NCBI GenBank assembly: GCA_035291085.1 | Contig: DATDTA010000145.1 | Span: 193 to 64,192 of the forward strand | Direction: 5' to 3' | Source of the DNA: Candidatus Nanoarchaeia archaeon | GTDB taxonomy: Archaea > Nanobdellota > Nanobdellia > Woesearchaeales > GW2011-AR9 | DNA length: 64,000 bases | Part shown: positions 13,610 to 14,579 of the stretch, piece after piece | Layout of the letters: each line of letters opens with the position of its first letter | Numbering within the stretch: the stretch's first letter is position 1 | The notes under the pieces: model-generated | Database searches by the model: none | Told to the model about the DNA's origin: nothing | Seen by the model: the letters and a program-made list of their open reading frames with translations, nothing else | Position numbers and translations under genes: made by a program

Positions 13610-13648
13610 GGTGACTACAAAATAGAAAATTATATAAATGTAGTCACC
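13610..13648. repeat. Palindromic hairpin GGTGACTACA-(19 nt loop)-TGTAGTCACC ending 12 bp upstream of the Fic start codon.
   Basis: Read directly. Arm positions are 13610-13619 and 13639-13648, a perfect 10-bp stem. Confidence 0.8.
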
Positions 13649-13659
13649 TTATATAATAT

Positions 13660-14556
13660 ATGTTCATAGAAATAAGAGCCAAAGGGAAAAAGAAAAAATA
13701 TTATCTAAGCCAGAGTTATAGGGTGAAGGGTAAAATAAAGAAGATTGTACAATATCTTGGCGTAAATCTAAGCGAGGAAGAACTTCAGAAACTAAGAGTT
13801 AAGGCTGAACAACGTATTCTTAAAAATGTTAGAGAAAAAAGCATTTTGGAATTTGAATTAAGTGAAGAAGAGATCAAACAATATAGAAGATACGAACAGC
13901 AAATTGAAATTCTTCATTTACAGAAACTGAATTGGAAAAGATTTACAGAAAGCTTTACATATAACACCAATGCAATTGAGGGATCAACAGTTGCTTTATC
14001 TGAAGTAAAGGAATTGTTAGAACATAAAGAGAAGCCGCAAAATGCAGATGAGCTTGAAGCATTAAATGTTGCAGAAGCAGTTGAATTTATTCAGAAAGTG
14101 AAGGAAAAGCTTTCTCTTGACGTAATCAAGAATATCCATAATATCTGCTTTAAGGGCACTAAGTCATTTGCTGGAAAACTACGGAGTGTTGAAGTAGTTA
14201 TAAAAGACCGTGAAGGAAATATCATTCATAGGGGTGCGTCAGCAACAGAAGTTGTATCATTGCTTAAAGACCTTTGCAAGTGGTATGGAAAACACATCAA
14301 AAAATATCCCCCTTTATTATTAGCTGCATTAGTGCACAACCAATTTGAAAATATTCATCCTTTTCAGGATGGCAATGGTAGAGTTGGAAGATTATTATTG
14401 AATTACGTCTTGTTAAAACAAGGCTATCCGCCAATAAATATTTATTTGAAAGATAGAGCCAGATACTATCGATGTCTGCAGAAATTTGATTCTAGAAATG
14501 ACATCAAATCAACTTTGAAATTTTTGATAAGCCAATACAAAAAGCAATATAGGTGA
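13660..14556 (+). CDS. Fic/Doc family protein (AMPylase-type), class II-like with an intrinsic inhibitory motif.
   Basis: Fic active-site motif HPFQDGNGRVGR. The upstream TNAIEG fits the (S/T)xxxE(G/N) inhibitory-helix consensus. The gene is AT- and Lys-rich compared with its neighbours. Confidence 0.85.
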   Translation: MFIEIRAKGKKKKYYLSQSYRVKGKIKKIVQYLGVNLSEEELQKLRVKAEQRILKNVREKSILEFELSEEEIKQYRRYEQQIEILHLQKLNWKRFTESFTYNTNAIEGSTVALSEVKELLEHKEKPQNADELEALNVAEAVEFIQKVKEKLSLDVIKNIHNICFKGTKSFAGKLRSVEVVIKDREGNIIHRGASATEVVSLLKDLCKWYGKHIKKYPPLLLAALVHNQFENIHPFQDGNGRVGRLLLNYVLLKQGYPPINIYLKDRARYYRCLQKFDSRNDIKSTLKFLISQYKKQYR

Positions 14557-14579
14557 CTACAATCACACATGTAGTCACC
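14552..14579. repeat. Second copy of the same palindrome, GGTGACTACA-(8 nt loop)-TGTAGTCACC, overlapping the Fic stop codon.
   Basis: Arm positions are 14552-14561 and 14570-14579. The Fic TGA (14554-14556) lies inside the left arm. Confidence 0.8.

Follow-up and report, generated by a model that had tools for sequence, protein, structure and literature searches.

Autoregulation of a Fic protein through a fused DNA-binding domain was already known from a single bacterial case, CccR of Yersinia pseudotuberculosis. CccR is both a Fic toxin and a transcription factor, with an (S/T)xxxE(G/N) helix and a DNA-binding domain on one polypeptide (PMC9755527). It represses its own gene via 10-bp inverted repeats with an N26 spacer, which lie over its own core promoter (PMC9755527). 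In this study, a Fic gene bracketed by two copies of a 10-bp-arm palindrome (GGTGACTACA and its complement TGTAGTCACC) was analyzed in the contig DATDTA010000145.1 of a Candidatus Nanoarchaeia archaeon. The whole analyzed stretch of 64,000 nucleotides is called the window. Judged from its sequence, the 970-bp stretch 13610–14579 is a copy of a self-contained single-gene Fic module, which appears widespread in Archaea and to move horizontally. The motif TGTAGTCACC is probably an operator half-site that is bound by the N-terminal domain (N-domain) of the Fic protein itself, with autorepression and 3' insulation as the likely effects.

The locus resembles CccR in having a Fic protein with an inhibitory helix and inverted 10-bp repeats that span the core promoter of its own gene. 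The TATA box has one arm on either side, and 11 nt separate the proximal arm from the ATG. CccR differs in being bacterial and secreted by the type VI secretion system (T6SS), with a C-terminal helix-turn-helix (HTH), a sigma-70 promoter, and no reported 3' palindrome. In the window Fic, the extra domain is N-terminal and has a β-sheet fold, the promoter is an archaeal TATA promoter, a palindrome lies on the stop codon, and DNA binding is predicted. New are the N-domain, the archaeal promoter logic, the placing of the 3' palindrome at the stop codon, and a conservation that crosses phyla and includes natural variants of specificity.

Archaeal repressors such as MDR1, Phr, and LrpA act at or just downstream of the TATA box. 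Their operators lie between the TATA box and the transcription start, and they are dedicated HTH or ribbon-helix-helix (RHH) regulators. Archaeal repressors that bind between the TATA box and the start block recruitment of the polymerase. Unlike MDR1, Phr, and LrpA, the putative regulator here is fused to an enzyme, and the sites also flank the 3' end. Type II toxin–antitoxin pairs of the Phd/Doc type are similar in that autorepression at promoter palindromes (putative here) holds down the level of a Fido-fold toxin and in that the modules are mobile. In contrast to Phd/Doc, the locus has no separate antitoxin gene, the inhibition is intramolecular (class II), and DNA binding would reside in the toxin. 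When the neighbour genes were compared across module contexts, no other gene was consistently linked, and the neighbours differed in every context examined. A Phd/Doc-like pair was rejected on these differing neighbours and on the lack of a small conserved partner open reading frame (ORF) within the 970-bp unit.

The four arms of the two palindromes were the sole exact copies of the 10-mer in the window, where about 0.12 copies are expected per given 10-mer on both strands. The Fic ORF lies between the two palindromes, so that the bracketing described in the original prediction was found again. With at most one mismatch, five matches were present against 1.23 expected, and five were reached in 1 of 100 shuffles. 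The spacer between the arms is 19 nt in palindrome 1 (upstream) and 8 nt in palindrome 2 (3' end). The original prediction had also proposed a folding-energy check, and both palindromes were predicted to form stable hairpins, with −17.1 kcal/mol (z −5.8) for palindrome 1 and −19.8 kcal/mol (z −4.6) for palindrome 2. Neither value was reached by any shuffle.

The 19-nt "loop" of palindrome 1, AAATAGAAAATTATATAAA, was read as the transcription factor B recognition element (BRE) and TATA box of the Fic promoter. In the window, TTTAWATA is found at −32 to −24 from the ATG of other genes that come first in their operons, and these genes have no leader, which is the archaeal leaderless pattern. With the TATA box in its spacer, the upstream element is to be seen as a promoter/operator and not as a hairpin that marks a boundary. 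The same geometry was found throughout the family. A half-site (with at most two mismatches) ended 5–14 nt before the ATG in 51 of the 52 family members with a recognizable start, and 10–12 nt before it in 46. A TATA-like box was immediately 5' of the proximal half-site in 47 of 51 family promoters. Because most of these loci were found via the 3' palindrome, the promoter geometry is an independent regularity.

Two promoter forms were distinguished. The full, long form reads GGTGACTACA-N11/12-TGTAGTCACC, about 12 nt, TTTAAATA, TGTAGTCACC, N10–13, and ATG. Its third half-site, directly 3' of the TATA box, is unpaired and has no local hairpin partner. In the short form, two arms directly flank the TATA box; this form is present in the window, L065, L127, and the closest relatives of the window. 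The arm spacings across modules were 4, 8, 10–13, and 19–21 nt.

The 3' palindrome was present in 53 loci, with a spacer of 11 nt in 34, 12 nt in 10, and 13 nt in 3. It overlapped the end of the gene in three registers: the TGA inside GG-TGA-CTACA, which is the usual register and that of the window; the stop just before the arm; and the arm read as Gly-Asp-Tyr-Lys with a later stop. The three registers indicate that the DNA sequence is conserved, not the peptide.

The distribution of the motif was investigated by scanning for GGTGACTACA-N(4–30)-TGTAGTCACC in one genome per species (596 Gb). The exact palindrome, with 20 specified bases, was present at 119 or more genome loci, at least 111 of which were archaeal and represented about ten phyla; the calculated chance expectation was about 15 matches. 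The archaeal groups were Bathyarchaeia, Micrarchaeota, Woesearchaeota, Aenigmatarchaeota, Nano- and Nanohalarchaeota, Pacearchaeota, Altiarchaeota, Hadarchaeota, Thaumarchaeota, and Methanosarcinales. Eight bacterial loci had the exact pattern among the matches listed, which is within the roughly 15 chance matches, and none had a Fic of the window type adjoining the palindrome. At one of them (L126), only a distant Fic (E 1.3e-18) was present, about 280 nt from the palindrome.

Among the matches listed, a homologue of the window Fic was found in 73, mostly with E values of 1e-70 to 1e-94, and about 70 of these adjoined the palindrome. The other 46 palindromes listed, the "orphans", were mostly beside short C-terminal remnants of Fic, in promoter remnants, or at the edge of the fetched 8-kb tile. 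A generic element at the ends of many unrelated genes, which would have spoken against a module boundary, was thus not what the matches listed contained. Relatives with Fic but without palindromes, the other finding that would have spoken against it, were likewise not encountered. Eight modules retrieved by protein similarity alone all carried both elements, so ascertainment through the exact motif is not the explanation. The palindrome is an element of the Fic module and not a generic element.

The Fic family itself is larger. At least 4058 relatives of the window Fic were found at E ≤ 1e-10, in DPANN, Bathyarchaeia, Methanosarcinales, Thaumarchaeota, and other groups. The nearest named relatives were Fic family proteins of Woesearchaeota and Nanoarchaeota, and the exact protein was present on more than 22 groundwater metagenome contigs. 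Together with the leaderless promoters, this makes a DPANN archaeon the most likely source of the window. In GenBank phages and PLSDB plasmids, tblastn matches were confined to the Fic core, from about residue 80 onward, and never reached the N-domain. A scan of viral contigs for the palindrome returned three loci, all GC-rich and without Fic, in which TGTAGTCACC forms tandem arrays; they were judged unrelated. These IMG/VR contigs (L140 at about 7090–7215, L142 at about 3795–3920, and L141 at 2925–2965) contain tandem and inverted TGTAGTCACC(CC) arrays, which may represent an unrelated operator array. In the literature searched, the motif was not found apart from FLAG-tag primers, in which GGTGACTACAA encodes G-D-Y-K, and no description was found of an archaeal Fic architecture with this N-domain.

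Half-sites that deviate from the standard motif did so throughout a module. TGTAGaCACC was present in every half-site of L133, L146, and L147, and in three of the four of L136. L149 had TGTAGcCg(t/c)C at both the promoter and the 3' end, and L130 had the same G-to-A change in both left arms (TGTAaTCACC). Such module-wide concerted variation is the pattern expected if a reader travels and co-evolves with each module, and a host-wide factor would hardly account for it. In paralogous, more distant Fic families whose N-domains are related and which in some cases share a genome with the module, inverted arms flank the TATA box and end about 8–13 nt before the ATG. Their half-sites differed beyond a TGTAG-like core (TGTGGACAA, TGTAGCCAT, TGTAGGTATA, and TGTAGTGCCT). 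Paralogue loci of the same design were L045 2459–3529, L074 875–1831, L109 4421–5401, L089 1774–2802, L039 3476–4381, and L150 1668–2591; AAGTAGGGG was also used. In L089 and L039, the promoter site is a variant, whereas the 3' palindrome is the standard one.

The Fic protein belongs to the Fic/Fido family, with a PF02661 score of 76.2 bits against a cut-off of 24. By its motifs, it is a class II, intramolecularly inhibited Fic protein, and AMP-transferase activity is predicted. The inhibitory motif TNAIEG is on the same chain, 130 residues N-terminal to the Fic motif, and aligns with the matching region of FICD. These two motifs and the FICD alignment bore out the class II, auto-inhibited type that had been proposed from the sequence. 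The core and the inhibitory helix are shared with the class II proteins FICD/HYPE, BT_2513 (3CUC, E 8.7e-20), and SoFic (Table 1). The window Fic differs from them in lacking the tetratricopeptide repeat (TPR) domain of FICD and the C-terminal winged helix of SoFic, and in having its own unique N-domain. SoFic is a toxic defence protein of the abortive-infection type. The PADLOC SoFic match covered profile positions 30–263 of 361, with 264–361 unmatched, and the NCBIfam SoFic equivalog scored 51.6 bits against a cut-off of 550. Identity with the SoFic anti-phage system was rejected, since the C-terminal domain of the full-length model was unmatched and the score was far below its cut-off.

The three-dimensional structure was simulated by AlphaFold2 (AF2). 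A model of the whole protein from the single sequence had a predicted local distance difference test (pLDDT) score of 37 and was not usable. With an alignment of 127 sequences, the model was confident, with a pLDDT of 86–95 for residues 1–50, and showed strands at residues 2–8, 11–22, and 25–35 and a helix at 39–63. The N-domain is very basic, and Arg6, Lys13, Tyr15, Arg21, Lys25, and Tyr32 are invariant or nearly so. Residues 1–80 gave no credible sequence match in Pfam, PDB sequences, or PHROG; the best profile match, to centrin EF-hands (E 0.07), was judged spurious. Weak fold matches were obtained to AP2 domains and to the integrase arm-binding domain 3jtz, and the best Foldseek match was of the integrase arm type. 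As modelled, the N-domain is a new three-stranded-sheet-plus-helix domain.

No more than 51 proteins were returned by an exhaustive HMMER search with residues 1–90; they were largely fragments, together with a few chimeras that have C-termini other than Fic and have kept the promoter half-sites. In two chimeric ORFs (L143 210–1064 and L144 2001–3509), about 60 residues of the Fic N-domain and the promoter half-sites were fused to a HAD-type hydrolase or to a 440-residue membrane/surface protein, and no 3' palindrome was present. The chimeras look like products of fusion or decay rather than an independent domain family, as far as their sequences indicate.

The favoured reading is that the TGTAGTCACC sites are bound as double-stranded DNA by the N-terminal basic domain of Fic, which would work in dimeric form. 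At the promoter, the bound protein would keep out the TATA-binding protein (TBP), transcription factor B (TFB), and RNA polymerase, so that an AMP-transferase with toxic potential would be under negative autoregulation. The 3' palindrome, and in long forms the extra palindrome upstream of the TATA box, may serve as a protein-dependent roadblock or a loop anchor. Binding at the 3' end would then insulate Fic from neighbouring transcription wherever the module lands, or would close a repression loop. Observed directly are the anatomy, the link with Fic, the limits of the module, the insertion, and the concerted half-site variation; the identity of the binder, the sign of the regulation, the task of the 3' site, and a toxic or defensive function are inferred. 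Under the favoured reading, a large archaeal family pairs a small β-sheet domain with a 10-bp motif that has a fixed place in a TATA promoter of the leaderless type and recurs on the stop codon. If this is true, the family would provide archaeal genetics with a portable repressor/operator pair, of which variants with differing specificity exist in nature, and it would be a new family of archaeal DNA-binding domains. It would also be a model for the silencing and insulation of single-gene toxin or defence modules that land anywhere in tiny DPANN genomes.

Several observations weigh against N-domain binding. Arm spacing as variable as this (4–21 nt) is rarely seen with rigid dimers, and recognition of a hairpin or cruciform would account for it just as well. 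A base-paired stem would likewise explain the arm changes that are compensatory, of which three are independent (L065, L149, and the TGTAGaCACC clade), and two of the G–T wobble type. Simple repression at the promoter leaves the 3' palindrome without an explained role. The fold matches of the N-domain are weak. The co-occurrence of N-domain and promoter in the chimeras is not independent evidence, the coding region being physically linked to the promoter. The N-domain residues KK-I-V/R versus KR-I-S correlate with the TGTAGaCACC variant in a single clade only.

The palindromes might alternatively be recombination or mobility sites, that is, cassette ends read by a trans-acting recombinase or transposase or by an integrase-like Fic N-domain. 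To this we give a low probability. The module was compared with modules in unrelated contexts (RadA/RPA, PheRS, and Dus/RluA neighbourhoods), and DNA similarity to the window covered 13610–14579 in L130, 13605–14579 in L136, and 13610–14561 in L133. The unit common to unrelated contexts thus ends exactly at the outer palindrome edges, and close homologues occupy entirely different neighbourhoods. A methyltransferase-based metagenome scan returned a sole close relative, L137, and Fic is absent from the same site in it. Positions 1–3951 of L137 aligned with 9405–13356 of the window and positions 4000–4847 with 14756–15603, at 91–93% identity. Between them, L137 has 48 nt in place of about 13357–14755. 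An insertion between glycan operons, as originally proposed, was supported by this synteny with a relative that has the same flanks and lacks the block. The low GC content, the 75-nt remnant of a flanking gene, and an ORF fragment at 13483–13590 indicate that the block was inserted into the window lineage. The region 13357–14706 bears the marks of recently acquired DNA in a strain-variable cell-surface/glycan island. Mobility would also agree with the existence of solitary palindromes, with the integrase arm-type fold match of the N-domain, and with the concerted variation of the two palindromes of a module.

Against recombination at the palindromes, the indel of the window runs from 13357 to about 14706 and carries a foreign flank remnant, so at least this transfer was imprecise. 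No integrase or transposase was consistently near the module in the window or in the other contexts, only two copies were present in 64 kb, and there were no arrays. The TATA box of the gene is at the canonical distance in the upstream element, with a lone conserved half-site beside it, which points to transcription control. Many of the orphans were truncated Fic 3' ends or tile-edge palindromes and not clean excision scars. The conserved unit is bounded by the palindromes; this acquisition was imprecise, and the palindromes are not supported as cutting sites.

The cassette-like insertion of the original prediction therefore stood as regards the insertion and the unit limits 13610–14579, but not as regards the edges of the indel, which are not the palindromes. 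Its suggestion of an integron attC-like or a miniature inverted-repeat transposable element (MITE)-like unit was not supported, given these outside edges, the foreign flank remnants, and the lack of a linked recombinase. The locus is like attC, MITE, and repetitive extragenic palindromic (REP) elements in that palindromic elements bracket a single promoter-proximal gene at differing genomic positions. It differs from them in having no integrase, array, attC core sites, multi-copy dispersal, or precise indel edges, in its conserved sequence, and in the promoter inside the upstream element. An integron attC cassette was rejected on the lack of a recombinase domain in the neighbours (window and eight other contexts), the lack of arrays, the perfect stems at both ends, and the promoter inside. 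Terminal inverted repeats (TIRs) and a target duplication were sought at the edges of the 1.35-kb block, and only ambiguous CTTTT-type microhomology was found. A possible short microhomology is ATATCTTTT in the left flank and ATACTTTTTT at the right end. A MITE/TIR transposon was rejected, with two copies in 64 kb, indel edges outside the palindromes, and this ambiguous microhomology.

A role of the palindromes as nucleic-acid hairpins is also unlikely. Here, the 3' copy would stabilize the 3' end of the mRNA or act as a terminator, and the upstream one would serve to terminate transcription that comes from the adjacent operon, or to insulate against it. The stable folding of both palindromes (−17 to −20 kcal/mol, z about −5) agrees with it, as do the compensatory or wobble-compatible nature of some arm changes and the freely varying loop length. 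A simple scan flagged the 3' palindrome as terminator-like, on the minus strand only. However, a structure-only element would be expected to drift, and the exact stem sequence is kept across about ten phyla. With the TATA box inside palindrome 1, that element would be absent from the Fic mRNA. Unpaired third half-sites are conserved, uncompensated mismatches occur in L136, L030, and L149, and the palindromes had no Rfam match. A run of five or more T within 30 nt downstream was present for only 2 of the 53 3' palindromes, and no T-run follows 14579 on the Fic strand. A generic intrinsic or oligo-T terminator was rejected on this count. The terminator pair that had been considered from the sequence did not hold, given these few T-runs and the TATA box in the upstream "loop".

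It is more doubtful that the Fic module is an autonomous selfish element. In such an element, which would be of a new kind, the N-domain, with its likeness to integrase arm-binding or AP2 domains, would synapse the identical end palindromes. The 970-bp unit would thereby be more readily excised, captured, or gene-converted, or DNA binding would be coupled to toxin activation. This would explain why the unit ends exactly at the palindromes and why the motif is unchanged across about ten archaeal phyla.

Reading of the half-sites by a conserved host transcription factor instead of Fic, with the module plugged into a host regulon such as a stress or virus response, is very improbable: DNA binding by the N-domain is only predicted and TATA-proximal sites are typical of archaeal repressors in general, but the motif is essentially confined to Fic modules with no further copy in the window, orphan copies are mostly Fic remnants, and the variants are module-specific, with paralogous modules of the same genome using other half-sites (L150 versus L150b, L045, L074), which argues for a reader travelling with the module.

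Table 1. Coordinates of the Fic module, its parts, and the surrounding block in the window.
Feature	Position	Strand	Remarks
Distal (left) half-site of the putative promoter operator	13610..13619	+	GGTGACTACA; palindrome 1; equal position and sequence in the short-form promoters of L065, L127, and L146–L147
Putative archaeal BRE/TATA	13624..13639	+	AGAAAA TTATATAAA; in the 19-nt spacer, about 21–30 nt before the ATG; fits a leaderless-type promoter
Promoter-proximal half-site	13639..13648	+	TGTAGTCACC; palindrome 1; between TATA box and start codon, ends 11 nt before the ATG
Fic gene, 298 residues, class II (predicted), FICD/SoFic-like core	13660..14556	+	Pfam PF02661 E 3.8e-21; FICD 6i7j E 5.5e-20 from residue 99; PADLOC SoFic E 4.5e-38
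N-terminal basic domain, candidate DNA-binding	13660..13854	+	Residues 1–65; three-stranded antiparallel sheet and long helix in the AF2 model
Inhibitory-helix motif TNAIEG, (S/T)xxxE(G/N)	13966..13983	+	Residues 103–108; nearly invariant in the family alignment
Catalytic Fic motif	14356..14391	+	HPFQDGNGRVGR; starts at residue 233; fits HxFx(D/E)GNGRxxR
3' palindrome	14552..14579	+	GGTGACTACA-N8-TGTAGTCACC, arms 14552–14561 and 14570–14579; left arm holds the stop TGA (14554–14556); 3' element in 53 loci
Inserted block relative to empty-site L137	13357..14706	.	GC 0.332; right edge uncertain, 14706–14755
Repeat B, imperfect palindrome of about 85 nt	13357..13445	.	Left edge of the inserted block; second copy 28158–28243; not part of the Fic module proper
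Remnant of foreign flanking gene carried in with the module	14594..14668	-	75 nt, 80% identical to the 3' end of a 125-residue ORF downstream of the Fic module in L130–L132

The composition and the neighbours of the gene were also compared with the original prediction. The gene is AT- and Lys-rich as stated, with a GC content of 0.330 against 0.398 for the window and 13.1% Lys in the protein. GT2/GT1 glycosyltransferases encoded on the minus strand adjoin Fic on the left. On the right come a plus-strand S-adenosylmethionine (SAM) methyltransferase at 14754–15569 and then, from 15501, a GFO/DegT sugar-modification operon on the minus strand. The claim that the flanking operons are on the opposite strand is right for the glycosyltransferase operon and for the operon from 15501, but the methyltransferase shares the Fic strand. 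The methyltransferase ORF (plus, ending at 15569) and a GFO/IDH/MocA oxidoreductase ORF (minus, ending at 15501) are convergent and overlap by 69 nt. A scan of the window found no tRNAs and no Rfam match at gathering thresholds.

The ORF fragment on the minus strand at 13483–13590, which ends in PIIKPLFERGNPYGRIDPTGHYILDGHIAEVKAE and a stop, is situated in the block, with repeat B on its left and palindrome 1 on its right, and is probably left over from a foreign gene. Neither it nor the remnant at 14594–14668 had a match in Pfam. An IS91-like pair (Zn_Tnp_IS91 and Y2_Tnp) is directly 3' of the Fic module in L131 (6602–7377) and L132 (4859–5634); in L130, which has the same flank, no genes were called in the gap.

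Repeat B (AGAGAACTTTGcAAAATAGtGATTTTG ... CAAAATCaCGgCtATTgCAAAGTCTCTtAGATAA) is present in two direct copies that are 80% alike and fold with −26.6 and −28.7 kcal/mol, and an arm-like copy is on the minus strand at 13457–13475. Rfam gave no match for it, and none of the other archaeal loci showed it. The contigs L005 and L006 are 100% identical to the window right of 13357 and unrelated to it on the left. A strain breakpoint at palindrome 1 was rejected, the breakpoint being repeat B. The left end of repeat B, the breakpoint between the strain variants (window/L001, L005, L006), and the indel edge against L137 coincide at 13357, which may mark a recombination hotspot or a MITE-like element. 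Left of 13357, L005 (1–3091) carries Laminin_G_3/CARDB, L006 (1–2398) carries Big-domain and PRC genes, and the window (3311–13356) carries a glycosyltransferase/CDP-alcohol operon, as in a strain-variable surface island. A second intergenic repeat pair, at 34285–34348 and 40838–40901 (TACATGAAA...GTACTGAAAA...), is 70% alike, and both copies are palindromic.

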